Shown here one piece after another: positions 5,412 to 58,600 of a stretch of 64,000 nt of DNA. Every line of letters starts with the position of its first letter. The first letter of the stretch is position 1. Location of the stretch: the IMG/VR virus record IMGVR_UViG_3300020577_007420, positions 1-64,000 of that record. One strand, 5' to 3'. Under the pieces are notes generated by a model. That model was given only the letters and a program-made list of their open reading frames with translations, made no database searches and was not told where the DNA came from. The position numbers and the translations under genes are program-made. Origin of the DNA: a virus (lineage: Duplodnaviria > Caudoviricetes).

Positions 5412-5422
5412 AATTTGAATAA

Positions 5423-5833: not shown

Positions 5834-5848
5834 GCCCCTTCTTTTTTT
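5821..5848 (+). terminator. Intrinsic terminator
   Basis: GAAGGGG-loop-CCCCTTC followed by a T run. Confidence 0.8.
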
Positions 5849-5869
5849 CAAATTAAAAACTAAAATTGT

Positions 5870-6067
5870 ATGGCAAAGAAAGAAATTGTTAGTATCTTTA
5901 CAGTTACTGAACTGAAGACTGGTAAGCAAATTGAAGAGGCTATTATTGGATGTGGACAGGAGGCTATACGATATCTACGTAAGCAGTACCCTAAGTTTAC
6001 CAAATTTGTATTGGATGGCTTTGAGGTAGATGGCCAATTTTTCCCTCTACAGTTAAAGATAAAATAG
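5870..6067 (+). CDS. Hypothetical protein
   Basis: ORF track. Confidence 0.6.
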   Translation: MAKKEIVSIFTVTELKTGKQIEEAIIGCGQEAIRYLRKQYPKFTKFVLDGFEVDGQFFPLQLKIK

Positions 6068-6068
6068 T

Positions 6069-6686
6069 ATGATTGATATTGAAAAGTACAAGGAGATTTT
6101 AAATCAGGGACTTCTTCTTGACCACTATAATCTTCTCCAATCTATTCACAACAAGACTGAAATTCTTGACAACAAGAGAATTAGAGGATTTTCTAATCTT
6201 CTTAGTAAGAAGGGATACCTAGATGAGGGTGAGCTTACTGATAAGGCAAAGAATCTTATTGCTACAGTTCCTGTAATCCCTACAAAAGTTGCAGTTGTTG
6301 CAAATACTCCACCCAAAATAAAGATGGATTATGGCTCTTGGATAGTTTCTTTACATAAGAAGTGTGAAGAAAAACTATTGCTAGCTACAGGCAAGAGACA
6401 AGTAAGGGACTCAATAAATGGGAAACCTTATTCATTTCTTCCAAATGCAACCGATTTGGGAAAGGTCATACTTAGAGCTATGAAAATGTATTCTCTTGAT
6501 GAGTATGATAGAATTGAGAGAACAATTCTTCTGTATATTGATAAGTGTATAAAGGCAAAGAATTGGTTTCCAATACTTCAATATTACATTTTTAAGAATA
6601 ATATGAGCCCTATGGTTACAGATATGGAAAATCTTGAGAGTGACGAGAATGAGGCAAAATCTGATGATACAATTGTAAACATATGA
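6069..6686 (+). CDS. Hypothetical protein upstream of the replicative helicase (possible initiator/loader)
   Basis: 205-aa ORF with ATGA overlap to the helicase; function inferred from position only. Confidence 0.6.
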   Translation: MIDIEKYKEILNQGLLLDHYNLLQSIHNKTEILDNKRIRGFSNLLSKKGYLDEGELTDKAKNLIATVPVIPTKVAVVANTPPKIKMDYGSWIVSLHKKCEEKLLLATGKRQVRDSINGKPYSFLPNATDLGKVILRAMKMYSLDEYDRIERTILLYIDKCIKAKNWFPILQYYIFKNNMSPMVTDMENLESDENEAKSDDTIVNI

Positions 6687-42561: not shown

Positions 42562-42876
42562 ATGGATTTGACGAGAACACAACTATTGAAGGGGGAATAC
42601 ATATATCCAAAGGACCTGATATACCTCAAACCGACTAAACATTTTGTTGAGAGGCTTGAGCAAAGAGGTTTGGGATTAGAATGTATTCCAACAATGGTAA
42701 GAGTCACAAAAGATAATGTGCACTCTGCCAAAACAGATAATGGAAAGGAGTTGAGAAGTGTTGTGGTGAGACTTAAATATAGCAGTACCAGATACATTTT
42801 TCTCTGCTTCAATCCATTTGACGGGAGCCTAAAAACCCTCTGGTTTAGGGACAAAAACAAAAAGGGGAGCCAATAG
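42562..42876 (+). CDS. Hypothetical protein
   Basis: ORF track; last gene of the + strand arm. Confidence 0.55.
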   Translation: MDLTRTQLLKGEYIYPKDLIYLKPTKHFVERLEQRGLGLECIPTMVRVTKDNVHSAKTDNGKELRSVVVRLKYSSTRYIFLCFNPFDGSLKTLWFRDKNKKGSQ

Positions 42877-42892
42877 CTCCCCTTCTTTTTTT
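42859..42892. terminator. Bidirectional terminator between convergent genome arms
   Basis: A run-GGGGAGC-loop-GCTCCCC-T run located at the strand switch. Confidence 0.8.
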
Positions 42893-42917
42893 CCCCACAA
42901 CTTCCGATTAAGGAGTT

Positions 42918-43077
42918 GTTGTAGTGGTAGTTGTTGATGAGGTTGATGTGGTAGTAGTTGTTTCTACAATCTCTGTGATATCTACCCAAACAGTACCGTT
43001 GTAGTGGTAGTTGTTGAGGTAGTAGTTGTAGTTGTTTCTACAATCTCTGTGATATCTACCCAAGCAGTACCGTTGTA
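42918..43077. repeat. Imperfect tandem duplication (about 74-80 nt unit)
   Basis: TAGTTGTTTCTACAATCTCTGTGATATCTACCCAA(A/G)CAGTACCGTTGTA at 42955 and 43029. Confidence 0.85.
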
Positions 43078-43320
43078 CTTCTCCATTCTCTTTAGAGACT
43101 CGTTCCATCTTACTGGATAGGTAATATCAGCAGCCTCTTCACAGCAATCGTCGTAAAACGGTACGTGAAGTTTGTTAAGATATTCCCAGAACATCTTTCT
43201 GAAACCAAAAAAACCTTTTGTCCAACCTCTTTTGTTTCTATCAGAGGTATTAAACTCTCTGATTAGACCTTTGTCTAGACCTTTGTCTTTCATAATTATA
43301 GCATGCATTTGTATCGCCAA
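42982..43320 (-). CDS. Small protein with Thr-rich C-terminal tail
   Basis: ORF track; DCC motif and TTTTTTSTTTTTT. Confidence 0.7.
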   Translation of the reverse strand: MAIQMHAIIMKDKGLDKGLIREFNTSDRNKRGWTKGFFGFRKMFWEYLNKLHVPFYDDCCEEAADITYPVRWNESLKRMEKYNGTAWVDITEIVETTTTTTSTTTTTTVLFG

Positions 43321-43352
43321 TGCAAGAAGCGTTTAAATTATTTATATTATAA

Positions 43353-43724
43353 TTATTCACATATTATTTCTACAAACAATACCCATGTATCAGTAATATT
43401 AACTGCTGGATTAGTTGCAACTAAATTATCATTAACAATGCTAAAAGTAAATCCAGTATTTAAGAAGTGTGCATTTATATCTACTAAGTAGTCTTCCCAA
43501 GTGGTTGAGCCATTACCTAGTGTTGATAATGGAACAATTGTCATACTATTTAGTTGCAATCTTATAATGATATAACACGGTGGTACAAATTCACCAAGAT
43601 TTTCGGAATTAACCAAAGTGACAGGAATAGTTCTACAACTACAACATATTTTTCTTTTTAATTTGTTGATATATCTCTCTATATCTGCTCTTGTTGAGTT
43701 ATATACATCTATTTTTGCTGCCAT
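43353..43724 (-). CDS. Hypothetical protein with CCSC motif
   Basis: ORF track. Confidence 0.65.
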   Translation of the reverse strand: MAAKIDVYNSTRADIERYINKLKRKICCSCRTIPVTLVNSENLGEFVPPCYIIIRLQLNSMTIVPLSTLGNGSTTWEDYLVDINAHFLNTGFTFSIVNDNLVATNPAVNITDTWVLFVEIICE

Positions 43725-43725
43725 T

Positions 43726-44277
43726 TTACGGAATTATACTTTCGTATTTAATAAGTATTTGAGCTATGGCACGGGCTAATTCCTTCTTTCTACTATTATA
43801 CTTGGCTAAATCATCCTCATTAGAGATGAATGCCAATTCAAGAAGACATACTAATCCATCTTCCTTCATTAGAGCAAGACGTTTGTGACGTGTGTCAGCT
43901 TCTGTTTTTACACCTCTATTTTTAATACCCAAGATGGATGATGTGGTATCAACCAGTTCTTTGGCAAAAGCTTTGTCTAAACGGTCAGCATCTATCTCTA
44001 TAAGAGAAGTAGAACCTGTAGCCGTTGATGGACCAGCATCGAAGTGAAATTCTAATACTACAGAACCGTTACCTGTTTGAATACGGTTTACGTACTGTTG
44101 CAGGGTTTCAGTATCAATATCCTTCTTATGAGGAGCTCCTAATATTGTAAGCTCGTGGCTTACTAAATCTCTAAATTCAATAGTCAAATCACCCTCTTTA
44201 ACCCCATTTTGGGAGATTGCCCCGGGGTCAGGATTTACCGGATGTTTACTATGATGTCCTGCTGATATAAATAACAT
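43726..44277 (-). CDS. N-acetylmuramoyl-L-alanine amidase (Amidase_3) endolysin
   Basis: ISAGH, EGDL, EFHFDA and LLELAFISN zinc-amidase motifs. Confidence 0.88.
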   Translation of the reverse strand: MLFISAGHHSKHPVNPDPGAISQNGVKEGDLTIEFRDLVSHELTILGAPHKKDIDTETLQQYVNRIQTGNGSVVLEFHFDAGPSTATGSTSLIEIDADRLDKAFAKELVDTTSSILGIKNRGVKTEADTRHKRLALMKEDGLVCLLELAFISNEDDLAKYNSRKKELARAIAQILIKYESIIP

Positions 44278-44325
44278 ATATTTAACTTTTAAATTTCCAA
44301 ATATATCCTCCTGCTGATATAAAAA

Positions 44326-44574
44326 TCATACGTCTCCTCCTTCTTGTTTTTCTTCTGTTTTTGTGATTTCTGGCTTATTTATTCCTAGCCACTTCTCTAC
44401 AAACTTCTCAATACTTCGAGGAGTATAAAGTAGTATGGTTCCCATTACGAAACCAGCTATGCCTTCCCAGATGAATGGGATAGCAGAAGCAAATACCAGT
44501 AATAATGTTGCCAATAATACTAATATTCCGATTAAGGACGATATCCATCCTTTTATTACATTAAGTACTTTCAT
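44326..44574 (-). CDS. Putative holin
   Basis: Two hydrophobic segments and a charged C-terminus; adjacent to the amidase. Confidence 0.55.
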   Translation of the reverse strand: MKVLNVIKGWISSLIGILVLLATLLLVFASAIPFIWEGIAGFVMGTILLYTPRSIEKFVEKWLGINKPEITKTEEKQEGGDV

Positions 44575-44584
44575 ATATAAAAGT

Positions 44585-44872
44585 TTATTCTATCAGCTTT
44601 GCCAGCTTTTCCTGTAAGTGCTCAATTTCTTGTCTAAGTCTATCATTTTCAGACCTTAATTCATTTACTAAAATCCTCAGTTCATCAACCTCTCTTTTAA
44701 GGTCTTCTGCCAGATTTCTCCAGATAGCAACAGCTTTTTCTGTTGCGTCTAGCTCACTAAATTGAGCCTGTGCAGCAGTAACTCTTGTTTCTGCGTCCTG
44801 TTTTTTCTTCCCAAGAAAATAGCCTACTACCATGGTGGCAATGCTGACTGCCCCACTAACGATTAGTTCCAT
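44585..44872 (-). CDS. Membrane-anchored coiled-coil protein (holin/spanin-like)
   Basis: N-terminal transmembrane segment followed by a heptad coiled coil; in lysis cassette. Confidence 0.55.
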   Translation of the reverse strand: MELIVSGAVSIATMVVGYFLGKKKQDAETRVTAAQAQFSELDATEKAVAIWRNLAEDLKREVDELRILVNELRSENDRLRQEIEHLQEKLAKLIE

Positions 44873-44946
44873 TCGATTGTAATTTAGAGGTTAATGATAC
44901 TATAATATAAGCTATTTCAACGATTTGTCAAAAATAACCTATTAAG

Positions 44947-45969
44947 TTATTTTACCTCTTTCATTGCCTCGACATAGAACCAAGATGCACTATCCTTCTT
45001 TACAGCATGATTTTTTCCCAGTGGAGATTTATCTATCCAGTCTCCTTTATAAAATAATCCCGGATGTCCTTTTGTGGCCCCAGCATTATGAAAGATGGGT
45101 TTCTTGTGGTACGTTTCTGCAGAATCTGTAGCCCAGCTAAAATCAAGCTCTGGTGTTACATCTGTAATCTTATTGCGTGACCATAGAGCCATATTAACGG
45201 CCCACATATCTGCACACCAGCTTTGGAATCCTTCAGCTTCAGACTTAAAGTATTTTTTATTTATGGAGTTGGGAACACTAAACGAGAAGGCTTTCCTAAT
45301 CTCAACACATTGTCTTTCTACATCTCTCCAGAAATCTCCATCTATCCCTTTTAGTATATATTGTGCTCCACCTGTCCTTCCTGTATAGGATTTTATTATA
45401 TCTACTGTTACGTTTCCTATCTTAGCCAAGGTCTCTATTGCCTCATGTTCTGGGATATTTCCCTGTTGCTCTTTTCTTCTTAGGTAATCGTAATCAAGAT
45501 AGTGAGAGGTATCTGATTGCCAGTTTATTGCACCTTCTGCAAGTGATTGAAAATCAGGAAGATAGTTAAATATGATGTCACTATCGTGGTAAAATATGAC
45601 CTCATTTTTAAGATGAGGATACATATCAAAGTGCTTAGCTAGTATCTGAGGTCTAAGCTGTGGAATATATAATCCCAAATCTACTCCCGTATCCTTATAG
45701 AAGGAAAAACTTACCTCTGGATATTTTCTAGCTAAAGCTACCCACTCATCAATCTTTATTTTCACAGGAGAGTGTCCCTGCTTTTGGAGCATTTCATTAT
45801 CTGGATACCAGACTAGTACATGCATGAGATGGGATATCTTATGCTTTCTAAAGTTTACTATATTTACCTCCACTTGCCATATAAAATATAAGTCATGAGG
45901 ACATGCTTGTATAAATTTTATATTAGATATATTTCCAGTCATATCCTCCTGCAAAGAATTTTTCTCCAT
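44947..45969 (-). CDS. Putative GT-A fold glycosyltransferase
   Basis: FYHDSDIIF (DxD), GGAQY, WCADMWA and FHNAG motifs. Confidence 0.6.
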   Translation of the reverse strand: MEKNSLQEDMTGNISNIKFIQACPHDLYFIWQVEVNIVNFRKHKISHLMHVLVWYPDNEMLQKQGHSPVKIKIDEWVALARKYPEVSFSFYKDTGVDLGLYIPQLRPQILAKHFDMYPHLKNEVIFYHDSDIIFNYLPDFQSLAEGAINWQSDTSHYLDYDYLRRKEQQGNIPEHEAIETLAKIGNVTVDIIKSYTGRTGGAQYILKGIDGDFWRDVERQCVEIRKAFSFSVPNSINKKYFKSEAEGFQSWCADMWAVNMALWSRNKITDVTPELDFSWATDSAETYHKKPIFHNAGATKGHPGLFYKGDWIDKSPLGKNHAVKKDSASWFYVEAMKEVK

Positions 45970-46504
45970 TCTTGTTGATTTTATTTGTTAAGGTAAGATG
46001 AATAGTTGAACGAGGTATTTTTAAAAATTTAGAAGCCTCAGATAATGTATCAAAAATTAATTCTTCACCTGTTAATATATTTATTGCTTTTGTTTTCTTT
46101 GAAATACTTTTATATGAACCTTTTAATATTTTTGTTTGTTTTGTTTTAAGTATTTCCTCTTTTGTTCTTTTAAACCCTTTTAAAGAATTAGAAGTTTTTA
46201 TTCTACTTTCTATTGAAGGAATATAACCAGTACTACCATCTCCACCATCTGTTAAATTTACTAATGTACCTTTTTTTAAATTTCTTCTCCCATAAAAAGA
46301 TATTAGATATTTCTCTATAACACAAGCTTCTTCCCATATTAAGTCTTTATGAGTTATTTCTACATCATAATCATATTTATTTACTATAAATTTCCACCAT
46401 CTATTTCTACTATCTTTACTATATGCTCTTTTTTCAAATTCTCCTATTCCAACATAGAATACTTCATTAGAATTTTTCTTTTTATGTATATATACTATTG
46501 CCAT
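45923..46504 (-). CDS. Free-standing GIY-YIG-like homing endonuclease
   Basis: VYIH...FYVGIG...RAY, LVNLTDGGDG and NUMOD-like tail. Confidence 0.8.
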   Translation of the reverse strand: MAIVYIHKKKNSNEVFYVGIGEFEKRAYSKDSRNRWWKFIVNKYDYDVEITHKDLIWEEACVIEKYLISFYGRRNLKKGTLVNLTDGGDGSTGYIPSIESRIKTSNSLKGFKRTKEEILKTKQTKILKGSYKSISKKTKAINILTGEELIFDTLSEASKFLKIPRSTIHLTLTNKINKNGEKFFAGGYDWKYI

Positions 46505-47223
46505 TATACTTTATAATAATGTTCTGCCCAAGATTTTGAGACTGGAGTTATTATTCCATCTCCAATATCCTTAGAATAACTTGCATAATTATTAAAATTT
46601 TCAGGATTATGGGGATTACCAGATGTCTTAAATGTTGGGATTTCCTGACTCCAGTCACATATATAAGTAGGTACTCCATCTGGGTCTACGAATATCTGCT
46701 TATCATATATAAGAGGATTTAACCATTTATGATGCTGGGCTACACTCTCATCTCCGAATCCATGCTCCTTTATATGCTTTGCATCTACAAAGATAGATGG
46801 TTCAAGTGTGTTCTCAACTAAAGTAAGTCTATTTCCAGTTTGCTTATAGTAGGACCTTTGTGGCTTATATGCCTTTTTTCCTCCCTTTATATACCCTTTT
46901 ACTCCTTCTTCTACATGATTTGGGAGAAATATATCGTCATCATCCATAAAGTTTACGATATCTACATCATCTGGAATAAACCTAATGGCATCATTATAAA
47001 TCTCACCCAACGTCCTATATGCTCTTCTTTCCTTTAAATGTGTATGATTGTTTATTAAAATAAACTTATTTGCAGGAAGATTAGTATTAAGTCTCTGTTG
47101 CTGAGGAGCATTATTATATATTAGATGCACATAGTTCTCATAAGTCTGCTCTAATACAAACCTAACAAGTCTTTCTAGCTGCTTGTGTCTATTCTTTGTT
47201 GCTGTGATGAGACATACTTTCAT
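46504..47223 (-). CDS. Glycosyltransferase family 2
   Basis: LITATKNR...LEQTY and FMDDDDIFLPNH motifs. Confidence 0.85.
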   Translation of the reverse strand: MKVCLITATKNRHKQLERLVRFVLEQTYENYVHLIYNNAPQQQRLNTNLPANKFILINNHTHLKERRAYRTLGEIYNDAIRFIPDDVDIVNFMDDDDIFLPNHVEEGVKGYIKGGKKAYKPQRSYYKQTGNRLTLVENTLEPSIFVDAKHIKEHGFGDESVAQHHKWLNPLIYDKQIFVDPDGVPTYICDWSQEIPTFKTSGNPHNPENFNNYASYSKDIGDGIITPVSKSWAEHYYKV

Positions 47224-47645
47224 TGTATAGTAATAATATTTGAAGTTAAATCAATCTTCATTCCTACCGATGCCATATGGTCAATACCTAAAATACCTCC
47301 TATTGGTAAATCTTTTACAATATACTCAATATCAGTAACATATATATCTCCATCCATCTTATGCTTGCCAAGTTTTATTGTAGATTGGTCAACTAACATA
47401 ATCTTCTTTGCTCCACCATAACCTGTTATCTCCTTTCCCCAAGATAACTTCTTGATATTCAATTTATTAACCACATCATCATCTAAGATAGTTATAGCTC
47501 CTCCTGTATCTAATATCATTTCAATAGGAACACCATCTATAGTTACAACTATTGTTGGTAAATGATATTGTCTATTTATCTGATGAGTATAGGTATCAGA
47601 TTTACAGGCTACAAATAGTAGCAATATTAGTAGTAGTTTTTTCAT
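47220..47645 (-). CDS. Retropepsin-like aspartic protease with lipoprotein signal peptide
   Basis: MKKLLLILLLFVA-C lipobox-like start; LDTGG and GILGID motifs. Confidence 0.8.
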   Translation of the reverse strand: MKKLLLILLLFVACKSDTYTHQINRQYHLPTIVVTIDGVPIEMILDTGGAITILDDDVVNKLNIKKLSWGKEITGYGGAKKIMLVDQSTIKLGKHKMDGDIYVTDIEYIVKDLPIGGILGIDHMASVGMKIDLTSNIITIQ

Positions 47646-49348
47646 TATAAGCAGTTACCATCGTTTACAGTAAGGGTTAAAGGAGATGGACCAGTCATAT
47701 CTACATTTGTCCAAGTTGCATTAGGTGAAGGGTCACCTGCTCCAACTGGTTCACATGTCAGAGGTGTTCCATATGTATCAACAAGTGTAATATTCTGACC
47801 ACCTATTGCATTTGACCAAACCACATATACATCAACTAATCCATCATTTGCTAAAGTATGGTTACTATCTGGGTCACCGGGACCAGCATAGCTTCCCGGA
47901 ACAGTAACTCCATCCAATTCAAATGTAGTGACAGTAACATCAAGAGATGTATTAGATACCACTATATTCTCATTTATACCAGATGTTGTAGTTGTAGTCG
48001 TAGAAGTTGTTGCAGGTTCTTGTGTAGTTGTAGTCGTAGTCGATGTTGTTGCCTCAGTTGTTGTTGTTGTTGTTGAGGTAGTAGCATCTGGTCCACAAGG
48101 CCCCATATTTGTTATTACAGGGTCACCACATGTAACATTAAGTGTTCCAGTTCTTGCACAAATTAGTGTAACACTTACTACAAAAATAGAGAATGGTGCT
48201 CCACTTTCACAATCTTCCCACTCTATACATGAACCACCATTGCCCTGAACTTGATAAGATGTACAATCAAGCGGAGCTTGTGTTGTTGTAGTTGAGGTAG
48301 AGGTTGTCGTAGATGTTGAAGTAGTTGTAGTTGTGGTAGTTGTTGTAGGCTCCTCAGTTGTGGTTGTAGTTGTTGAGGATGTAGTTGTAGTGGTTGTACC
48401 AGCACAAGGATATCCACCTACTCCATTATCAGTAACAGTAACTCCCGGAATCACAGTTATATTAAAATGCTCAGGACAGCTACACAAATAGTATGTAGAA
48501 CCTGCACCTAATGTAACATAAGTTATTACATCTGAACCACATGTCTTAAAGTTGAATGAGATAGGAACAGATGTCTCTATAAAGTAACCATGGCATTCAC
48601 ATGGAGCAGCAGTAGTAGTTGTAGTGGTAGATGAAGTTGTAGTCGTAGATGTGGATGTAGAAGTAGACGTGGTAGATGTCGTAGTGGTTGTTGTCGTATC
48701 TGGACAAAAAGAACCACAATCTGCAGAGTAAACTCCCGTATTTATTGTAACAAATGGTAAACTATAAGTTGTTAAGCCAACTATCTTATAGTAAGAAGTA
48801 GGAACTGTTACCCCTTGATAATAATAAAGTGGGCTATATATAAATCCAGAAGGTACCTGAATAACTACGTTCTTTGCAACTAATTGACAATCACCATCTA
48901 AGCAAGAATACTCATCCGCATAGTAATATGTAAATTCAGGAACAGTTGTAGTAGTTGTTGTAGAGGTCGTTGTAGTTGTTCCACAACAGTCACATTTTGC
49001 ATTTATAATTGCCTGTAGCTTCTCTTCGAAGGTTAAAGCTTGCCACGCTTCCTGACTCATCAGGCACTTGGGGTCAACGTCATCCAGCACATCGTTTAAT
49101 GCAACGGTTACATCGACAGTTGAGGTAGTTAAAAATCCATCTTCATCTCTATACTCTATAATGAGATTGTTTCCCTGAAAACGGAAACCTGACATGAAGG
49201 TAAGTGTCTCACAATCTTTAACCCATTTACATAAATCGGGTTGTTGTTCAAATATGAGACATAATGCCTTAACTATACCAACTCTCCATTCGAATGGTAT
49301 ATCGCATAGATAGGCATGCAAGTCTTTATGGCAATTACAAATTTTCAT
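47645..49348 (-). CDS. Cys-rich modular protein with mucin-like Thr/Ser runs
   Basis: Several Thr/Ser tracts separate small Cys-rich domains; Thr codons are mixed. Confidence 0.85.
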   Translation of the reverse strand: MKICNCHKDLHAYLCDIPFEWRVGIVKALCLIFEQQPDLCKWVKDCETLTFMSGFRFQGNNLIIEYRDEDGFLTTSTVDVTVALNDVLDDVDPKCLMSQEAWQALTFEEKLQAIINAKCDCCGTTTTTSTTTTTTVPEFTYYYADEYSCLDGDCQLVAKNVVIQVPSGFIYSPLYYYQGVTVPTSYYKIVGLTTYSLPFVTINTGVYSADCGSFCPDTTTTTTTSTTSTSTSTSTTTTSSTTTTTTAAPCECHGYFIETSVPISFNFKTCGSDVITYVTLGAGSTYYLCSCPEHFNITVIPGVTVTDNGVGGYPCAGTTTTTTSSTTTTTTEEPTTTTTTTTTSTSTTTSTSTTTTQAPLDCTSYQVQGNGGSCIEWEDCESGAPFSIFVVSVTLICARTGTLNVTCGDPVITNMGPCGPDATTSTTTTTTEATTSTTTTTTQEPATTSTTTTTTSGINENIVVSNTSLDVTVTTFELDGVTVPGSYAGPGDPDSNHTLANDGLVDVYVVWSNAIGGQNITLVDTYGTPLTCEPVGAGDPSPNATWTNVDMTGPSPLTLTVNDGNCL

Positions 49349-49743
49349 GAAGGATGTGCTATTGTTGTAGTTGTTGTAGAAGTCGAACAGCAGTCACAGT
49401 GACTATCTATAAGCAATTGAATCTGCTGAGATAAAGTCAGGTTACTCCAAGTTGTTTCATCTGTTAAACAGTTGGGGTCCAAATCAAGGGACTGTTTTAT
49501 TATCTCAGATAATGAGAAACAACGATTTACTGGCACACTATCTTCTCCAGTATATGTAATACATACTGTCTCACCCGATATGGTGAAGTTCGATAGAGTG
49601 GTAAGCGTCTCACAATCCTTAACAATATTACAGTCAGGTTCTACTTTCTCCTCTTTTATCTCACAGAGTAACTGAACCAGCTGATTTTTCCACTTCGAGG
49701 GAATATCACTTAGATATTCTTCTATTTGTTGCTTGAATGTCAT
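49345..49743 (-). CDS. Paralog of the N-terminal domain of the Thr-rich protein
   Basis: Shared L.DIP..W, CETLT, DP.C and CDCC motifs followed by a Thr run. Confidence 0.8.
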   Translation of the reverse strand: MTFKQQIEEYLSDIPSKWKNQLVQLLCEIKEEKVEPDCNIVKDCETLTTLSNFTISGETVCITYTGEDSVPVNRCFSLSEIIKQSLDLDPNCLTDETTWSNLTLSQQIQLLIDSHCDCCSTSTTTTTIAHPS

Positions 49744-49850
49744 TTTATTATTATTTTAGTCCTAATTTTTGTTTTAATATTTCTGCATCATCCTGAATAT
49801 TATTACAGCCATAAGGATTTGGACCTTATGTTTTTTAAATGGTTTCTCTC

Positions 49851-50270
49851 TCATCTAATAAAAATTGTATATAATGATGTAAATAATATAATTAATGTCC
49901 ACTTTATGACCATTTGTTCTTTTGGAGAAAATTGTTGCAGGAAGTTATCAGATTTGGCATCATCTGCATCATCACTTCCATTATATCTCCAAGAGTATCC
50001 TCTCATCTTGTTTAGCCATCCATCAAAGAATTCCCACCACCAAGCTGCCATCATAGCAGCAGTAATTAATATTTTTATCATTACTGTTGGTATAGATTCA
50101 TCATCAACTGGTAGCATAAAACATGCAAAAGACGGAAGAAGGGCAAGTATTCTAAGTACCTGCCCTCTTCCGTGAGATACTCTGCCTGTAGGAATTCTTT
50201 TATAGTCTGATTTTACATCAAAATACATAACAGTCACAAAAGTCAATATGCCGAGTATTACTCCTAACAT
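49851..50270 (-). CDS. Membrane protein
   Basis: Several hydrophobic segments. Confidence 0.65.
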   Translation of the reverse strand: MLGVILGILTFVTVMYFDVKSDYKRIPTGRVSHGRGQVLRILALLPSFACFMLPVDDESIPTVMIKILITAAMMAAWWWEFFDGWLNKMRGYSWRYNGSDDADDAKSDNFLQQFSPKEQMVIKWTLIILFTSLYTIFIR

Positions 50271-50701
50271 TATTTAGGGTTTTGTAATTTAATAATATCT
50301 TCTGCTGACATTCTTGTTGAATCAATCTTGGCAGGAACAGGACGACCCTTACCTGCAGTCACACCATCATTTACTTTATCTGTACAAGCTTTGCCCCAAG
50401 CTATTGCTATAAATATTATGATTGGTAAAAATATGTTTAGTGAAACTCCATATCCACCAACACTCTTTATATACTTAACTATAAAATACATGCCAACAGC
50501 AGATAAGGCTGTCAATCCAATTGCCCATACCCAAAAATCTCCAGTTTGCTGCTGCAGAGCTTGGAGTCCTGTAATAGCACCTTCATCATCTTCCTTTGTG
50601 AAGAGAAATGTATAAATGGCAATACCTACCATTATTACAATGGCTGATAATACTCCAAACATGAATTTGTTTTCCTTAATCCAATTTACTAAATTTTTCA
50701 T
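50270..50701 (-). CDS. Membrane protein
   Basis: Three hydrophobic segments. Confidence 0.65.
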   Translation of the reverse strand: MKNLVNWIKENKFMFGVLSAIVIMVGIAIYTFLFTKEDDEGAITGLQALQQQTGDFWVWAIGLTALSAVGMYFIVKYIKSVGGYGVSLNIFLPIIIFIAIAWGKACTDKVNDGVTAGKGRPVPAKIDSTRMSAEDIIKLQNPK

Positions 50702-50713
50702 ATATTTTCAATT

Positions 50714-52495
50714 TTAATTAATGATTTGTTTTAAACTATCTATCACTCTTGATGAGGATATGAATCTTGAACACTCAAACTGTCTAGGTGTTCCTTTGTG
50801 GTCTGGACACCACCACCAATCCTGTGATTCTAACTTATGTCTGTTAAAGCAACCTCGGCACTTTCCTACTGGTGCATCTATTCTTATACAGGATTGCATT
50901 TCCGTATAGCTCTCGGAGAATCCTGAGACTAAAATAACAGGAATATTGCATGCCCAAGCTACCCAACTTAATCCGGTACCTACTCCTACATATGCCTTAC
51001 ATGCACAGATTTCTTTTATTAGTGTCTCCAGATTTCCTTCTGGAAGCTGTACAGCATTTTGTGGATTACTGTTTCCATTATGCCCGTCAGCTTCTTTACT
51101 TAATAGAAGAGGTGTATATCCTATGTTATTTATATAATCTACTACATCTTGCCATCCTGTTGGATTATTCCAGTACTTTGCTTGAGTAGTGGAATGCATC
51201 CCAATTCCTATAGTATTTGTTTTCTGCACATCTGGTAAATCCAGCATTGGCTTTATCTCTATATAAGGAAGCCCAAGTATATCACTTGCAGTCTTCTGCA
51301 TAGGTTGGGTACGTGGGTCAAGCGGATGCTTATTGAAATCAATTCTATCATCCTTATAGTACCAGCTTATATTATATTGAGCCTCAAGGTCATATAGAGG
51401 TTGTCCTATTTCTGAAAACTGAATGTCAGGATAATGTTTCCTAAAGAGACTATTGTGCCTTGTTGTACAAATCATATGACACTTATGTCTCTTTCTGAAT
51501 TCCTCTATATATGGGAACCAAGCCACCGTGTCACCTAAACTATTCGACTCTATCCTAACATGAATCCTCTTTCCCTCAAAGTCAGTTTTGTATTCTGCAC
51601 GATACTCTCCCTTCTGTATACGAATCTTCCATTTTACGAAATACTCAGGATTGGCTCTTGCCCATTCACCTGTTGCGATGGATGATGAGTAAACTATCTC
51701 ATCTGTGTCTTCATTTATGAACTGGATATCATACTTACCAAGTCCAGCCGTCATATCAACTCTACATCCGTTGACATAACTTATTGTAAATGAAGGCTCT
51801 ATATCAAATTTTGAGGATGGTAATATAAAGAATATGATTTCTCTATAGTAGTCTAGCTTTGATTCTAGCTCTTCTCTAGTCATCATTCTCCCATCTACAG
51901 AGGTAAGTATTACATCCATATTGTAATCTTCAAGCATCTGCATCATATACATTATATATGCTTTATGCTTTCTGCTATGAATATGTAATTCTCCAGTTAT
52001 CTTTCTTACATTTTCCTTTATCCAAGGCATGTTCTCTCTTGTGAAGATATCGTACTCTCCTCCCTCGCAATCTACTTTTAAGAAATCTATCCTTTGGATA
52101 TTGTTTTTCTCTATAAATGACTTAAATGTCATTGTTGAGATTTCTATATCTCCATTACCAATCTCATTTGCGTGTCCATCAGATGTAATAACTGATGTAC
52201 CATCTTTTCCAGATATAGCAGAGCCGATTACTACTAGTTTTTCATCATTAAGCTTTTTTAAATCCTCGATGAACATGGGGTCTGGTTCTAAAGCATACAC
52301 CTTAGATGCTTTCTTTATGGCCAGCTTTGATAATATTCCAACATGAGCACCCACATCTACGACTACATCTCCATCTTCTATTTCAAAGAACTTTTCGTAA
52401 ATACCTTCTTCTTCTATTTCTCTCTTGGCAACATCAACCATCAGTTGATAGTTTCCCTCAACTGTGTCTCTCTTCTTGAGATTTTTATAAATCAT
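50714..52495 (-). CDS. FkbM-type methyltransferase fused to an Aah/TibC-like protein O-glycosyltransferase
   Basis: N-terminal VVDVGAHVG, LEPD and KVDCEGGE motifs; C-terminal SLGDTVAW, AKYWNNPTGW, GLSWVAW, SGFS, CRGC and CP.H...FEC motifs. Confidence 0.8.
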   Translation of the reverse strand: MIYKNLKKRDTVEGNYQLMVDVAKREIEEEGIYEKFFEIEDGDVVVDVGAHVGILSKLAIKKASKVYALEPDPMFIEDLKKLNDEKLVVIGSAISGKDGTSVITSDGHANEIGNGDIEISTMTFKSFIEKNNIQRIDFLKVDCEGGEYDIFTRENMPWIKENVRKITGELHIHSRKHKAYIMYMMQMLEDYNMDVILTSVDGRMMTREELESKLDYYREIIFFILPSSKFDIEPSFTISYVNGCRVDMTAGLGKYDIQFINEDTDEIVYSSSIATGEWARANPEYFVKWKIRIQKGEYRAEYKTDFEGKRIHVRIESNSLGDTVAWFPYIEEFRKRHKCHMICTTRHNSLFRKHYPDIQFSEIGQPLYDLEAQYNISWYYKDDRIDFNKHPLDPRTQPMQKTASDILGLPYIEIKPMLDLPDVQKTNTIGIGMHSTTQAKYWNNPTGWQDVVDYINNIGYTPLLLSKEADGHNGNSNPQNAVQLPEGNLETLIKEICACKAYVGVGTGLSWVAWACNIPVILVSGFSESYTEMQSCIRIDAPVGKCRGCFNRHKLESQDWWWCPDHKGTPRQFECSRFISSSRVIDSLKQIIN

Positions 52496-52504
52496 ATGTT
52501 GGTT

Positions 52505-53392
52505 TTATATATAAGTAACTAATGGATTATTGTCATAATCGCTTCCATATGTTAGAAACTTTCTTATCTTGCATGGTAATCCATAAGATAATGCTTCTTT
52601 TATACAGATTGGGTTTAGTTCGAATGTGCTTGGGAAATAAAACTCATCACAAGCCTGATAAAATAAATCTACATCGTCCTTTTCTCCCCAAACTACACAG
52701 TTAGCTGGCTTATTCTGCATAAGAGGTCCCCAGTAATTCTCAAAGTTAGGTGCCTGATTCCCAACAAAATGATAGGTATTTTGAGGATTTACTCTAGCAA
52801 TCTCAAATAATTCTCCTTGATTCTTGCCCGGAGTAAATAATCCCACATTTAGGATATGTTTTCTATTAATATCCATTCCCAGTTCTAGCTTCTTCTGTAT
52901 CTTCTGTTCTGGTGTAACTTCCTTACTTTCAATAGGAAATTCCCATATATCACAGGGAACAGTAGGCAACTGGGTTAAGAATAGATTCTTTTGCCAGTTA
53001 TTTACTGCAACTAGCTTATCTGGGTATCTATCAAATGACTGCCCGTATGTTAAAGAGCTATGAGATGTAACTACTACAAACCAAGTTCTATCCTGTTTGT
53101 ATAGATACTCTAAGTTTGGCTGGTCTAGGAATTTCTCTGGAAGTTCCTGACAATGAATGACTTCTGGACTTATTTGCTCTATTTTGCTCTGTAGAAGTGC
53201 TTGATTTCCATATAGAGAATCAAACGTACACATAGCTTGTAGTCTGTTTCTCTGGACTACATACTGCTCTCCATAAAAGTCTACTTCCAGTACAAATATC
53301 TCGTTTCCCTCAAGAAAATCCTGAACCTGTCTTACGACATATTGGGGCATTCCTCCTGTCGAACAATGTGGTAATAGATATAATATTCTCAT
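52505..53392 (-). CDS. Glycosyltransferase family 4 (GT-B)
   Basis: MRILYLLPH.STGG, VGLFTPGKNQ and FPSTFELNPICIKEALSYGLP motifs. Confidence 0.85.
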   Translation of the reverse strand: MRILYLLPHCSTGGMPQYVVRQVQDFLEGNEIFVLEVDFYGEQYVVQRNRLQAMCTFDSLYGNQALLQSKIEQISPEVIHCQELPEKFLDQPNLEYLYKQDRTWFVVVTSHSSLTYGQSFDRYPDKLVAVNNWQKNLFLTQLPTVPCDIWEFPIESKEVTPEQKIQKKLELGMDINRKHILNVGLFTPGKNQGELFEIARVNPQNTYHFVGNQAPNFENYWGPLMQNKPANCVVWGEKDDVDLFYQACDEFYFPSTFELNPICIKEALSYGLPCKIRKFLTYGSDYDNNPLVTYI

Positions 53393-53396
53393 TACG

Positions 53397-53428
53397 CAAA
53401 TATATGAAATTATATATTATTCTCCAAA
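53397..53428 (-). promoter_or_regulatory. Bacteroidota-type promoter driving the glycosyltransferase block
   Basis: Minus strand reads TTTG-N20-TATATTTG, 5 nt upstream of the GT4 start. Confidence 0.75.
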
Positions 53429-53716
53429 TTAATAAAATGTTGGGCCACTCCTATAGTAATGTGCACCAGTTGGGGAGAAATAATCATCCTGACAGTACTT
53501 AATTATTACCATTCCATCACCACCCGGAGCACCGCCATTTCCAAATTGATAAAAGTCACCACCGCCACCGTATGCGATGAATGTTGTTGCAAATGATGTG
53601 TTTCCACCAACAGCACCAGAACCAAGATTTGTTCTTGCTGTTGTTGTATTTGTTAAATCAGACAAATTATTTGTCTTGATGAGTTCTCTTGAATTGATTG
53701 AGTTATTTGTTGCCAT
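53429..53716 (-). CDS. Small Gly-rich protein, possibly an internally deleted fibre-associated gene
   Basis: NNLSDL...ARTNLG joined to a GGGG...GGDGMVIIKY segment. Confidence 0.55.
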   Translation of the reverse strand: MATNNSINSRELIKTNNLSDLTNTTTARTNLGSGAVGGNTSFATTFIAYGGGGDFYQFGNGGAPGGDGMVIIKYCQDDYFSPTGAHYYRSGPTFY

Positions 53717-53717
53717 A

Positions 53718-55316
53718 TTATGTTATTGTTATATTACCTTGACTACTTAATACCATCCACTCTGTATCAGCCACGATACAAAGTAATTCAACTGCATCAT
53801 TTGTATCTGTCGAATCAAGTCTTCCGCCAACACCAGTAGTTGTGTCTACATTTCCAAAATGAATTATTTCAGATGCGTTTTGTGCAATTCTCCAACCACC
53901 TGCACCCTTACCAGCAACACGCACAACAGAACCAACAGCAGCTGTATCTGGTAGTGTTACTGTGACGAGTGAAGCATTGTTGCATATATATCCATTGTTT
54001 ACAGAAGCAGCCTGACTTGTTCCAGTAACCTCATTCCAAGTAAAACCACCAGCAGACATTGACTCTATTTTATCTCGTATAGCATTTTTGGTTGGAACTT
54101 CTAATGAACCATTCCAGTTTGTTGCGTCATACGCTTCATCTGCTACTTCTAGGTCTGTATAAGCACTGTCATCAGCAAGTCTAGCTTGTAGAATTGTCGA
54201 GCTTCTTTTAATTGCAGGAAATGAAGACGTTGTCCCATGAAATTGTATCAAACCAGATGTATTTATTTGTAAATAACCAGCAGTATTCCCAGAACCAAGC
54301 ATTAGAGGAACACCTGCAGATGGATATATACTCCATGTTGAACCAAGTTTTAAATAACCAGTATTTCCACCATAAATAACATTAAAGTCTGTTGATACTC
54401 CTGCATTTGGGTTAATGGTTAAGCCCTGAGAACCAGAAAATAGTCTAATCACACCACCATGACTACCAGCACCATTGTTCGTTGTTATATATATTCCAGT
54501 AGTATTACCAGTTCTTGATGTATCATTATATATTTCAGATGCAGTTCCATAATCTCTTATATCAAAAGTTGGTGTTCTAACTTTTCCAGAACCACCCAAT
54601 GTAATATCTGTTCCATCAAAAGTAAGGTTAGCACTTGTTTGTAATGTATTTGAATCAGAACCATAGGGGATACGATTAGATACCATTGTTCCGTCTATCT
54701 TTCCGTCTATTTGTGTTTGGATTCCAGATGTAACACCTTTAACGTAAGCTACTTCTGCAAGTGAAGGATACGTTGCGGTATCTAGGTATGAAATTGTATC
54801 AACATCTGTCCAGTAAGTTAGTCGGTTTGAAACACCAGAACCATCAATAGTTCCACCTCCAGAAGTACCTGATGTACCTGTTGACCCCGATGTACCACTT
54901 GTTCCATTAGAACCATTAGCACCACTTGTACCAGAAGTACCGTTGGTTCCAGAGGTTCCGCTTACACCACTTGTACCAGATGTACCAGAAGCTCCAGAAG
55001 AACCTGTGGCTCCAGAAGTACCAGAAGTGCCTGATAATCCGCTAGTTCCAGAGGTGCCTGAGGCACCTGAGGAACCAGTAGCACCACTTGTCCCGGATGT
55101 ACCGGATTGACCTGAGGTACCTGATGTTCCAGATGTTCCAGCTACTCCACTTCCCTGAGAGCCAACCTTTTCACATATTTTATTTAAAATAGAAGACAAA
55201 GGCTCCCCTTTTGTAGCGGGAACGCACAAATCAGAACAGTCATTGACAACTCCAGAAAGAGGTATCTTTGACTTGTTTACGAGAATATATTTCTTTTGGT
55301 CATTTGTTTCTGCCAT
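53718..55316 (-). CDS. Fibre-like protein with a (Gly-X-Ser/Thr)n repeat
   Basis: 31 consecutive G-X-Y triplets; beta-rich C-terminal domains. Confidence 0.75.
   Translation of the reverse strand: MAETNDQKKYILVNKSKIPLSGVVNDCSDLCVPATKGEPLSSILNKICEKVGSQGSGVAGTSGTSGTSGQSGTSGTSGATGSSGASGTSGTSGLSGTSGTSGATGSSGASGTSGTSGVSGTSGTNGTSGTSGANGSNGTSGTSGSTGTSGTSGGGTIDGSGVSNRLTYWTDVDTISYLDTATYPSLAEVAYVKGVTSGIQTQIDGKIDGTMVSNRIPYGSDSNTLQTSANLTFDGTDITLGGSGKVRTPTFDIRDYGTASEIYNDTSRTGNTTGIYITTNNGAGSHGGVIRLFSGSQGLTINPNAGVSTDFNVIYGGNTGYLKLGSTWSIYPSAGVPLMLGSGNTAGYLQINTSGLIQFHGTTSSFPAIKRSSTILQARLADDSAYTDLEVADEAYDATNWNGSLEVPTKNAIRDKIESMSAGGFTWNEVTGTSQAASVNNGYICNNASLVTVTLPDTAAVGSVVRVAGKGAGGWRIAQNASEIIHFGNVDTTTGVGGRLDSTDTNDAVELLCIVADTEWMVLSSQGNITIT
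54861..55139 (-). repeat. (GTS)n collagen-like coding repeat
   Basis: 31 triplets, mostly GTS, encoded with varied codons. Confidence 0.9.
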
Positions 55317-55440: not shown

Positions 55441-55683
55441 TCAGGAAGATAGCTCACCATCCATGTATTTAACAGATTCGTCCTCTATTTCAGGGACTTC
55501 CTCCTCTACTTCTAGCTTTCCGGGGACTACCCTTTGAGAAAAGGGGTCATCTACAAATGAGCCTAAATCATCAGCCATACAGGACTGAAAGAACTCGTCT
55601 ACGTCCTTTTCCTCTAGCTGGAAGTAGTATTCGTAGGTTGATACGTAGATAACCTTTCCATTTGGTAATGAGATATTTGGCAT
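55441..55683 (-). CDS. Hypothetical acidic protein
   Basis: ORF track. Confidence 0.65.
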   Translation of the reverse strand: MPNISLPNGKVIYVSTYEYYFQLEEKDVDEFFQSCMADDLGSFVDDPFSQRVVPGKLEVEEEVPEIEDESVKYMDGELSS

Positions 55684-58600
55684 TATCGTACTTTATTTTG
55701 TATTTGAGTAAATGTCATTATATATGGTGCAGGTTCAAATGTATATCCTGTATAACCAATTGTGTTCCAAAGAGTTGCCATTAATTTAGAGTCACCCTTA
55801 TCTTTAATAGCACCTATTCCGTCCCACCAGTAGTTGTACTTTTTCTTATTCTTATAGTATAGGTCATTGGTATCTCCCATAAGGTGCTGAAAACTATACT
55901 TAAGTATAGCGGACATGTTATCTACTGCAGATTTTGGAGCACCAAATGGGTCAAATATTGCTCTCTTCATCTCCATATATCCCAATCCCCATACAGGAAG
56001 AGGTATAAATGTGCCCAACTCTCCCTGAACTCTCAGTGCTATAGTTATGGCTACTTGTTTTTCCCAAGACATTTTTGATAACTTCTTGTTTCTTTCATCA
56101 TCATCATCATCATATCCAAACACCATAGGAATTAATATACCCATTAAAATCAATAGTGCAATCTCAGTTATACTTCTTCTTGCAGCATGCTTATATAAAG
56201 GATTGGATGCCATCCATTTATAGTATTCTTTCTCCTCGTCTTTTCCAAATATAAACCCTTTAACAAAAGCTGCCAGAAGTTTTCCAAAAGCTCTATGATT
56301 TCCTATTCTCTCCCTTTCAAGGAAAACGTCCATTACTCTTCCTTGATATCTATTTAAAAGCATAGGAATCATGTACTTTTTCATCATTTCAAATGCTCTA
56401 CCAACAGAATATCTTGAAATCCAAGACTGCATATGGTCATAGTAGTTACCATGTAAAAGGGTATAGAATTGTAGTACTGCAGAACGTAATTTCTTAACTT
56501 GTTCACCATTTACTGGGTCCCAATCATTTTTCATATAAGAATATTCATCCTTTAGTGCAATAACTCCATCTTTAAGTGTATACAAATCGTAGAATTCTAA
56601 TTTTCTTCCATTATTATCTACAATATTTGACTTTCTCATTATGATAGTTATTGCTGTCTGTATACCTAATGCATTTTCAGGCTCGCTCCTAATCTTCATT
56701 AGGTAGGTTCTAACTCCGCTAGCCATATTCTTCCAAGATAGAAGACTTTGAAGATTTCTTGCACCCGGTAACATATTGAATGCCATTATCATCTGGCTAT
56801 GAAGTCCATGCTCCCCTGCATTAAAATAATCTTTCTCATATGCCGAGAAGAATTCAAGTGACTTTGTACTAGCCTTTCTAAATGTATCCATAGCACCATC
56901 ACCTATCATAGATTCAATTATCAACTGGGCTTCTCCACTAAGTACGTTTACAGCAGAACCAACTATATCACCAGCCAGTTTTAACCCAGCTATTGACATT
57001 GCAAAGTTTACAAAATTGGCAACTTGTGGAAGGTTAAATATACTTTCTGGAATCTTATCTAAGATAAGTCCATCGTACAACATCTTAGTAAGATTTGCTC
57101 TATTTTTTCCAGCAAGAGACCTTTCGTGTATAGATATATACATGTCTCTTATTGCTTTAACGATAGGTTTTGCAAAGTTCTTTTGTTTATATACATTTAA
57201 ATCTGTAATAAACATTGTAAGTGCTGCTATAGCATCTGCGGATGTTTCATCTATAGGAATATTTCTTATAGATTGAAGCTTTACATCATCGTCTTCTGTT
57301 CTTGATTTAGCCCCACCACTGAATCTATCATATACCTGTTGAGTAGCCAAGCCAATGTTTTCTAGTTCAGCTCTTGCTTCTTTCTCTGCATTAAACCATC
57401 CTGAAAAAGGAGTTCTACCAGCTGCATACTTAGCTGCCTTTTTTGGATTTTTAAGAAGCTTTATTTCCTCATACTCATCTATTCTCATAGCAGGAATTCT
57501 TAAATCAAATCTATCCTGCTCAAGTAATTCTTGTTGTCTTTGTAGAGAATATAACTTGAGTTTTTCAAGCAATTCAAATACAGGTCTTTTTGATGGGTTA
57601 TTCTTTAACTCATGATATTTATCATTCCAGTATTTTCCTTTTTTAGGTAATGGTAACCAGTTTCCATTAATATCTACAGTTGCAGATACTTGTCCGCTAA
57701 TAACTCTAGGGTCAGTATCATATATCTTCTCAGTTCTATGTTCATCCTTTACAACCCTATATGTTAAAAATTTTGGATATTCTTCTGTATAATACTTTTC
57801 ATCTGTGGGTTCAAATTTTGTAACAAGTCTTAAAGGACTAAATTGTTCATATCCATCAGGATTCATATCATCTCTTACAATCCTTGTAGTATGTAAATCA
57901 TTATAAAACTCTATCAGTTTTGCTAGGTTTTTTGCAGATAATTCTTCTAATTTATATTCTCTCTCCACACTTTCCTCATACCCATCTATAAACTTATTAA
58001 CTTCTTGTTCTACTTTCTCCTTTAATTCTTTTTGGTTTCTTAAATTATCACGAATAATAGTAGCAAGTTTATTAACATGACTTTTGTCATATTCATCATT
58101 ACTTAGATACTCACCAAAAATATTAAAATAGTTCTGTCTTGTTTCCTCTTTTGGATTATTTAAATACTCTGTAAGTGCAGATAGTAGATTACTCTTATAT
58201 TCAGATTTAATCTTTTCGAACCCTTCCAGTTTTTCAGTTCTCTTATTACTTGCATCACTTACTCTTTCAGAAGAAACATTTGCCATATAATTTACTACAG
58301 CAACAAATAATCCATCCTCTCTTCCGCCTAAAAGTTTTTCCCAATCGTACACAGCTGCCCTAAGAGTATCACCCTTACCTTTCATAAATGTATCATATGC
58401 CTCTTGATGAGCAGTCTTATATGAAGAATATGCAGTATCATCTTTTAAATATTGGTCAGCATAAGCCAAGAAAGATTGCATCATCATAGTATAATTATGT
58501 GTTACATTTCTTCCTGCCATTTCATCTAACTGAGCAAATAATTCATTTAATCTATCTTCATTTTCTCTACGGGCATTACTTTTTATATAAGGTACATTGC

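Follow-up and report, generated by a model that had tools for sequence, protein, structure and literature searches.

Candidate two-module protein O-glycosylation island beside Ser/Thr-repeat proteins in an uncultured tailed phage

A block of co-directional genes on the minus strand of the phage contig IMGVR_UViG_3300020577_007420 (positions 42908-55316) is probably a cytoplasmic protein O-glycosylation island, in which two modules modify Ser/Thr-repeat proteins encoded by the phage itself. The contig is a linear IMG/VR viral record of 76,379 bp (about 60% complete according to CheckV) from an uncultured, marine-type phage, and the window, the stretch of DNA analysed here, is its first 64 kb. 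A sequence-only reading had listed in the block four glycosyltransferases, three proteins with Thr/Ser tracts, a fibre, two membrane proteins and a lipoprotein protease, and all of them are present on the minus strand (Table 1). It regarded them as a single system. Enzymes and candidate substrates are indeed co-encoded, but they separate into two modules: module A (50714-55316) joins a TibC/Aah-type domain of the BAHT family, a GT4 glycosyltransferase and a methyltransferase to a collagen-like fibre, whereas module B (42982-49743) joins a glycosyltransferase of the family phrog_4417 and a GT2 enzyme to poly-Thr proteins. The claim that phage enzymes glycosylate co-encoded Ser/Thr-rich proteins fits the comparative tests run here, based on linkage and fusions, while the rival explanations fit them poorly. 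Since neither signal peptides nor membrane segments were found in the four enzymes or the candidate substrates, both would meet in the cytoplasm. The two pairings recur in hundreds of other phages; the window is unusual in holding both modules, together with a methyltransferase-BAHT fusion, within one 12-kb block.

A TibC-type fusion enzyme and a proline-free collagen-like fibre

The enzymes TibC and Aah, which modify the autotransporters TibA and AIDA-I of E. coli, define the BAHT family (TIGR04414; PDB 4RAP and 4RB4; PMC4358343). In the fusion protein of module A, recognised by Pfam as Methyltransf_21 (E 9.8e-13) and GT9 (E 9.8e-6), an FkbM domain carrying the motif VVDVGAHVG is followed by a C-terminal stretch of 355 residues that matches TIGR04414 over profile positions 16-374 with 257.3 bits (258.8 bits in the genome search), above the family cut-off of 200. 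Residues 237-585 match the TibC structure 4RAP with an E-value of 2.6e-53, with 355 of the 406 residues of TibC aligned. Judged by these matches, the domain is a true member of the family. The N-terminal β-barrel of TibC (TibC_1st in Pfam) reached 21.3 bits against a cut-off of 27, and the pairwise alignment begins at TibC residue 25. In TibC, Asp-110 is the catalytic base, Thr-226, Lys-230, Arg-286 and Trp-305 contact the donor, Arg-286 doing so at the adenine N1 of ADP-heptose, Pro-300 determines stereoselectivity, and Cys-339, Cys-342, Cys-358 and Cys-370 form the iron finger (PMC4358343). The catalytic base and the phosphate- and sugar-binding residues are kept in the window protein, where D322, T436, K440 and W511 align with Asp-110, Thr-226, Lys-230 and Trp-305, and so is the iron finger, whose four cysteines align with C546, C549, C563 and C575. 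Among 38 non-redundant viral homologues the catalytic Asp, the Thr/Ser, the Lys and the Trp are kept in 37 to 38, and all four cysteines in 35. From its residues, then, the enzyme looks active.

Like TibC and Aah, the window enzyme would be cytoplasmic and is encoded near a repetitive, Ser-rich, rod-shaped protein, here a candidate substrate. It differs from them in its fusion to the FkbM methyltransferase, in its GT4 partner, and in that the candidate substrate is a collagen-like Gly-Thr-Ser phage fibre instead of the β-helix of an autotransporter; scans of the block proteins with Pfam, PHROG and NCBIfam gave no match to autotransporter families. The GT4 enzyme has an E-x7-E motif at E258-E266 and matches phrog_2170, named 'glycosyltransferase', with an E-value of 3.1e-9. 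Residues 57-152 of the fibre form 32 uninterrupted Gly-X-Y triplets, none of them containing Pro. In this repeat, described from the letters as (GTS)31, 18 of the 32 triplets are exactly GTS. In a protein search against cultured phages the non-collagen part of the fibre gave only three short local matches.

The association of these genes was analysed by scanning IMG/VR with the fusion protein; from the 88 relatives obtained, 80 loci were retained. This anchor set, and those of phrog_4417 and GT2 used below, consist each of the best 80 viral loci. Of the BAHT loci, 57 have a homologue of the window GT4 next to the anchor gene. When a Ser/Thr collagen gene was defined by at least 40% of its triplets being Gly-Ser/Thr-Ser/Thr, one was present in 35 of the 80, and in 30 of the 41 loci with at least 6 kb upstream, in almost all cases on the same strand and located upstream of the GT4 gene or just 3' of the BAHT gene. 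The order in the window, in the direction of transcription, is fibre, small open reading frame (ORF), GT4, methyltransferase-BAHT, and matches that of the relatives. The Gly-Ser/Thr-Ser/Thr repeat is not the phage default: ordinary phage collagens in the other anchor sets are of the GPQ/GIQ type, which accounts for most of the collagen-like genes around phrog_4417. Of eight collagen proteins linked to BAHT genes, two terminate in Peptidase_S74, the chaperone domain of trimeric tail fibres.

Domain fusions link the enzymes further. GT4-BAHT, GT4-FkbM, GT4-BAHT-Methyltransf_24/TylF, GT4-methyltransferase-BAHT, FkbM-GT4 and methyltransferase-BAHT arrangements were found, GT4 and BAHT being a single polypeptide in loci L066 and L073-L079 and in Microcystis phage Mel-JY01. 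The fusion of GT4, BAHT and methyltransferase in so many orders is a classical sign of one pathway.

In the Mel-JY01 locus (L002, 1-3052) 176 Gly-Ser/Thr-Ser triplets are encoded by a plus-strand ORF that spans two coding sequences annotated on the minus strand, so that the deposited annotation is there probably on the wrong strand; the ORF is followed, at 4750-8430, by the 1,226-residue GT4-BAHT fusion. A 'cytidylyltransferase like protein' near the BAHT gene of this phage was considered as a sign of phage-made ADP-heptose and dropped, as Pfam gives it no support.

The phrog_4417 enzyme, its GT2 partner and poly-Thr proteins

The phrog_4417 enzyme of module B has, according to its AlphaFold model (predicted local distance difference test, pLDDT, 91.3), a confident GT-A fold: a Foldseek search of the model against the PDB gave 291 matches at E ≤ 0.001, and every match examined was GT-A. 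The DxD motif (D129-x-D131) is invariant in 16 sequences. The nearest solved folds are WbbM, the catalytic domain of UGGT and α-1,3-galactosyltransferase, with template modelling (TM) scores of 0.4-0.5, and among viral models it is closest to uncharacterised phage proteins and to enzymes of GT8-like type. In these solved neighbours the enzyme differs from the plant HPAT enzymes (GT95; PF23452), GT-A enzymes that put the first sugar on hydroxy-amino acids of repetitive extended proteins, the role that we propose for phrog_4417. Its match to the HPAT profile (E 6.8e-4; 19.5 bits, below the cut-off of 23.9) covers only the 50 residues 243-293, and the likeness is one of analogy, not of membership. 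None of the sequence clusters that make up the phrog_4417 family, at least 1,497 in number, bears an informative name. Because homologues align from about residue 11, the true start of the window protein is probably Met-10, at 45942. The annotated start is overlapped by the gene of a homing endonuclease, a selfish element inserted between the GT2 and phrog_4417 genes; in the relatives L091, L092 and L094 the two transferase genes adjoin without it. The DDDD motif of the GT2 enzyme (D94-D97) is invariant in six homologues.

Three proteins of 567, 132 and 112 residues are the candidate substrates. Thr codons are mixed in the tracts of all three, so that selection for the tracts acts on the protein. 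Homologues built like the 567-residue protein are located upstream of phrog_4417 in related contigs, and those of the 132-residue protein were found in L087-L090 and L093; a protein search of its domain against cultured phages gave no match. The 3' end of the gene for the 112-residue protein contains a 74-nt tandem duplication (42918-43077; 2.1 copies, 89% match), and a second copy of the 'WVDITEIVE + poly-Thr' ending lies out of frame (ORF 42908-43108). Possible explanations are a duplication of recent date, an artefact of the assembly and a site of frameshifting.

With a poly-Thr ORF defined as one having at least eight Thr in ten residues, such ORFs occurred in 52 of the 80 phrog_4417 loci, but in just 2 of the 80 BAHT loci and in none of 17 control loci anchored on endolysins (Fisher, 1e-18). 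All those in phrog_4417 loci are on the strand of the enzyme. For 39 of the 87 phrog_4417 anchor genes, and so for 39 of the 52 anchors having such an ORF, the distance to the nearest one is at most 100 bp. When the anchors were clustered, poly-Thr ORFs accompanied 27 of the 38 groups formed at 90% identity and 12 of the 15 formed at 70%. In the close relatives L087-L094 the order is that of the 132-residue domain protein, a multi-tract poly-Thr protein, GT2, phrog_4417, lysis genes and the 112-residue poly-Thr protein. A scan for GT2 loci with the single sequence found nothing, and the GT2-anchored loci were obtained with an alignment as the query: 48 of these 80 contain phrog_4417 and 48 contain poly-Thr ORFs, both being present in 43, phrog_4417 alone in 5, poly-Thr alone in 5 and neither in 27 (p 1.6e-11). 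The co-occurrence of the transferases with Thr-run proteins, proposed as a check in the sequence-only reading, exists for phrog_4417 and GT2, but not for BAHT.

These counts bear as well on the possibility that fibre and poly-Thr proteins alike receive one oligosaccharide, built jointly by the four transferases and the methyltransferase. The genes form a single co-directional block in the window and in contig L093, 17 of the 80 phrog_4417 loci have a GT4 or GT4-BAHT gene no more than 6 kb from the anchor, and in the close relatives L092 and L094 the gene of a collagen-like fibre, made of (Gly-Tyr-Thr)n or (Gly-Tyr-Ser)n, comes immediately after phrog_4417. One pathway is nevertheless an unlikely explanation, as 73 of the 80 BAHT loci lack phrog_4417, 78 lack poly-Thr and in none was a GT2 homologue detected (10-kb flanks), while 78 of the 80 GT2 loci lack BAHT/GT4 and none contains a Ser/Thr collagen. 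Since most BAHT and GT2 loci lack the genes of the other set, each module can stand alone. The fibres of L092 (6939-9731) and L094 (6944-10036), with 125-152 triplets, have an unusual aromatic collagen repeat.

Homologues of phrog_4417 are present in 77 deposited phage genomes, seven of which were examined; in all seven the enzyme neighbours poly-Thr tails that are on, or adjacent to, capsid or tail-tube genes, and the pairing thus extends to cultured phages of other phyla and to known particle proteins. In Lactobacillus phage PLE3 a run of seven Thr closes the major capsid protein, which is followed by a 126-residue poly-Thr protein and then by the enzyme. In Clostridium phage phiCTP1, gp18, at the position of the tail-tube gene, has a poly-Thr C-terminus and is immediately followed by the enzyme. 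The last piece of the major tail protein of Staphylococcus phage vB-SscS-F1 ends in nine Thr, followed again by a poly-Thr protein (121 residues) and the enzyme, and the annotated major tail protein of Enterococcus phage VPE25 ends in ten. Lactobacillus phage Semele and Chryseobacterium phage MA9V-3 have each two poly-Thr proteins directly upstream of the enzyme. The poly-Thr genes of these six phages lie within about 2.5 kb of phrog_4417 and in five directly precede it. In the seventh, Arcanobacterium phage TPWB06, the sole DNA-level match to the window's poly-Thr gene falls just upstream of the phrog_4417 gene.

Two of these genomes deserve a comment on their annotation. The major tail protein of vB-SscS-F1 (L184, 782-2484) is annotated as 782-1009 plus 2212-2484, around a Cys-rich ORF of 296 residues; the split looks like an intron or mobile-element insertion, and the poly-Thr tail is on the second piece. 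In VPE25 an unannotated poly-Thr stretch of about 35 residues (L085, 4764-4870), in another frame and without a start codon of its own, lies just 3' of a hypothetical gene at the capsid-gene position upstream of phrog_4417 (L085, 3550-4752), and may be a frameshift extension of its product.

The cultured phages and the linkage data allow two further explanations to be weighed. In the first one, the transferases remodel the host envelope (lipopolysaccharide, capsule or another surface glycan), for instance to block superinfection, and the Ser/Thr-rich proteins are unmodified flexible fibres of the host-recognition region. Such a role has precedent in the glycosyltransferases from the fibre region of pelagimyophages, read as host-surface modifiers (PMC7029224), and would agree with GT2 and GT4 being the commonest families in polysaccharide synthesis and with tail-fibre regions being hot spots of accessory genes. 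We consider it improbable, taking into account that: (i) the TibC/Aah family has been shown to act on proteins only (PMC4358343); (ii) the enzymes have no membrane segment, and the small membrane proteins of the block no GtrA-type Pfam match; (iii) phrog_4417 follows poly-Thr tags in phages of both Gram-positive and Gram-negative hosts, whose unrelated envelopes argue for a target encoded by the phage; (iv) phrog_4417 matches none of 14 control cellular genomes; and (v) chance co-location would leave unexplained the preference of BAHT genes for Ser/Thr collagens over the GPQ type. Seroconversion of the GtrA/GtrB type was rejected on the absence of a GtrA match in the membrane proteins and of a membrane segment in GT2.

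In the second explanation the transferases glycosylate the phage DNA and protect it from restriction; DNA glycosylation is the activity for which phage glycosyltransferases are classically known (cited in PMC10202952 and PMC12619734). This is very improbable. The genes are located among fibre and lysis genes and not in the replication arm, phrog_4417 lies between capsid and tail genes in cultured phages, and BAHT enzymes have been shown to act on proteins only. A hydroxymethylase of the ThyA (thymidylate synthase) type was not found in the 76-kb record, which is weak evidence, the record being about 60% complete.

Proposed mechanism, weak points and related systems

We propose that the Ser/Thr-repeat proteins are modified in the cytoplasm, before or during assembly. 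In module A the TibC/Aah-type domain would attach an initial sugar to the hydroxyl groups of Ser and Thr in the proline-free (Gly-Thr-Ser)n fibre, GT4 would add a second one, or initiate at other sites, and the fused FkbM methyltransferase would cap the glycan by O-methylation. In module B phrog_4417 would start O-glycosylation on the poly-Thr tracts of the 567-, 132- and 112-residue proteins, and GT2 would extend the glycan so initiated. The particle would thereby gain fibres and linkers that are stiff, coated with sugar and resistant to proteases. From these data we infer the neighbours as substrates, the roles of initiator and extender, the sugars used and the biological benefit; the BAHT domain is placed as initiator solely because of what TibC does, and on serine-rich repeat adhesins enzymes of family GT4, too, can act as initiators. 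Shielding, receptor mimicry and adhesion, the benefits suggested from the sequence, are guesses.

Glycosylated collagens are found in the BclA-type glycoproteins of the Bacillus exosporium and in the cuticle collagen of Riftia, whose Gly-X-Thr repeats are O-glycosylated on Thr, with sugars that are partly O-methylated, and in which the sugar contributes to the stability of the triple helix. Unlike the window fibre, their repeats contain Pro, other transferase families are involved, and the proteins are cellular and not viral. By analogy, glycosylation would plausibly stabilise a proline-free triple helix.

Virion glycosylation has been documented, according to PMC12619734, in mycobacteriophages only (Che8, Corndog and Myrna; Freeman et al. 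2023, Cell Host Microbe 31:1216). In the account given there, phage-encoded transferases are proposed to glycosylate the proteins of their own particle, as is proposed here from gene linkage, and the tags are located at the C-termini of capsid and tail-tube subunits, as in the cultured phages sampled here. Differences from that account are the hosts, which are here Bacteroidota-type, Firmicutes and cyanobacteria, and the tags, which are pure poly-Thr runs or Gly-Ser/Thr collagen.

Several points weigh against the proposal. Both modules are known through family membership, motifs and linkage of their genes. TibC Arg-286 is replaced by Leu-492 in the window protein (the Arg is kept in 21 of the 38 viral homologues), so the donor may not be ADP-heptose; as, moreover, Pro-300 is replaced by Gly and the thumb-tip residues Phe-265 and Val-266, required for the TibC dodecamer, are not kept, both donor sugar and oligomeric state may differ from those of TibC. 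Genes for the synthesis of heptose or sugar nucleotides (CTP_transf_like, SIS_2, NTP_transferase) were not found in the 76-kb record, a negative result that is weak because the record is incomplete. The loci within each best-80 set are interrelated, so that the counts overstate independence, and the neutral control amounts to 17 endolysin-anchored loci, the anchor sets having been compared mainly with one another. The vicinity of GT4 or GT4-BAHT genes to phrog_4417 in part of the loci makes the assignment of enzymes to substrates not clean, and this vicinity, together with the gene arrangement of L092 and L094, makes cross-talk between the modules possible. Finally, the structure prediction of the N-terminal domain shared by the poly-Thr proteins has a pLDDT of 59, and the location of these proteins on the virion of the window phage is a presumption.

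A wider proposal, which we put forward tentatively and with somewhat less than even confidence, is that two independent and undescribed enzyme-tag systems exist in tailed phages of many lineages. In one of them a TibC-type enzyme, GT4 and a methyltransferase would act on proline-free Gly-Ser/Thr-Ser/Thr collagen, the glycans replacing proline and hydroxyproline in the stabilisation of the helix; in the other phrog_4417, with GT2 in some lineages, would act on bare poly-Thr tags of capsid, tail-tube and fibre proteins. A full-text literature search gave no paper linking BAHT enzymes with phages or collagen-like fibres, nor one linking phrog_4417-type GT-A enzymes with poly-Thr tags. If the proposal is true, poly-Thr would be a portable 'glycosylate me' tag, particle glycosylation would be common in environmental, dairy, gut and staphylococcal phages and not a peculiarity of mycobacteriophages, and it would involve enzyme families not previously tied to phage particles. 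Glycan coats could alter antibody recognition and clearance in phage therapy, and in marine and freshwater environments fibre chemistry could set phage adsorption and particle stability. The fibres would offer proline-free triple helices to collagen biophysics, and short poly-Thr or Gly-Thr-Ser tags with their matching soluble transferases would be useful tools in glycoengineering. The idea is directly testable in cultured carriers of the modules: PLE3, Semele, VPE25, phiCTP1, vB-SscS-F1, MA9V-3 and Mel-JY01.

Neighbouring genes and the remainder of the minus-strand arm

Table 1. Features of the glycosylation block and its borders (window positions)
Feature	Position	Strand	Remarks
FkbM methyltransferase + TibC/Aah-type (BAHT) fusion, 593 aa	50714..52495	minus	Methyltransferase at residues ~37-195; BAHT at residues ~237-591
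GT4 glycosyltransferase, 295 aa, soluble	52505..53392	minus	Pfam Glycos_transf_1 (PF00534), 27.0 bits vs cut-off 26.4, marginal
Collagen-like fibre protein, 532 aa	53718..55316	minus	Pfam Collagen (PF01391) E 1e-12, 48 bits vs 27.2; tail-fibre PHROG matches
phrog_4417 GT-A glycosyltransferase, 340 aa	44947..45969	minus	phrog_4417 E 1.6e-50
GT2 glycosyltransferase, 239 aa, soluble	46504..47223	minus	Pfam PF00535 E 2.7e-9, 37.6 bits vs cut-off 23.3
567-aa protein, seven Thr/Ser tracts, 28 Cys	47645..49348	minus	Small Cys-rich domains between tracts, 'beads on a string'
132-aa protein	49345..49743	minus	Repeats, as a separate protein, the N-terminal Cys-rich domain found in the 567-aa protein (alignment); short Ser/Thr tail at its end
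112-aa protein with C-terminal poly-Thr tail	42982..43320	minus	Homologues ending in poly-Thr in L088, L093
95-aa Gly-rich fibre-like protein	53429..53716	minus	Tail-fibre-like 'ARTNLG' N-terminal motif
Small membrane protein, 143 aa	50270..50701	minus	Three hydrophobic segments
Small membrane protein, 139 aa	49851..50270	minus	Three hydrophobic segments
Retropepsin-like aspartyl protease	47220..47645	minus	Pfam Asp_protease_2 E 4e-11; lipoprotein-type N-terminus
GIY-YIG/NUMOD homing endonuclease	45923..46504	minus	phrog_314 E 5.9e-12; weak NUMOD1 match
Lysis cassette	43726..44872	minus	Spanin-like 44585-44872, holin-like 44326-44574, Amidase_3 endolysin 43726-44277
Two-way intrinsic terminator	42859..42887	both	13-pair stem, then T run; site where the gene arms converge

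The remaining genes of the block are bystanders as far as the related loci indicate: the two membrane proteins, the protease, the homing endonuclease and the lysis genes, the last lying outside the glycosylation system, are not conserved with either module. This removes the membrane proteins and the lipoprotein protease from the system in which they had initially been included, as they are not conserved partners. The 143-residue membrane protein has no homologue in any of the three anchor sets, that of 139 residues has one beside the modules in a single contig (L087/L186), and a protease homologue is absent from the related loci examined. The 95-residue Gly-rich protein gave no family match in Pfam or PHROG and has no homologue in the BAHT loci. 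This protein, the lysis cassette, the homing endonuclease and the 74-nt duplication were absent from the sequence-only list.

Plus-strand genes reach to about 42.9 kb, where they converge on the minus-strand arm that carries the block. The record has a GC content of about 35% and gave no tRNA genes, and a DNA search with the whole block gave no match among cultured phages. The best match to a sigma-70-like promoter in the block (11/12; 44931-44902, minus strand) falls in the interval separating phrog_4417 from the lysis cassette; taken together, promoter-like sites are no more frequent than in shuffled sequence. Beyond the block the minus-strand arm contains ORFs of 2,211, 239, 3,173 and at least 1,272 residues, without family match in Pfam and PHROG scans. 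The first is located at window positions 55683-62318, the third extends from 63035 to genome position 72556, corresponding to 36-9557 of L266, and that of at least 1,272 residues is at 9560-13378 of L266. The sole match of the 2,211-residue ORF was a short tblastn match to a hypothetical protein of Leptolyngbya phage Lbo-JY46. In size and position these giant ORFs are reminiscent of the giant particle proteins of crAss-like phages.

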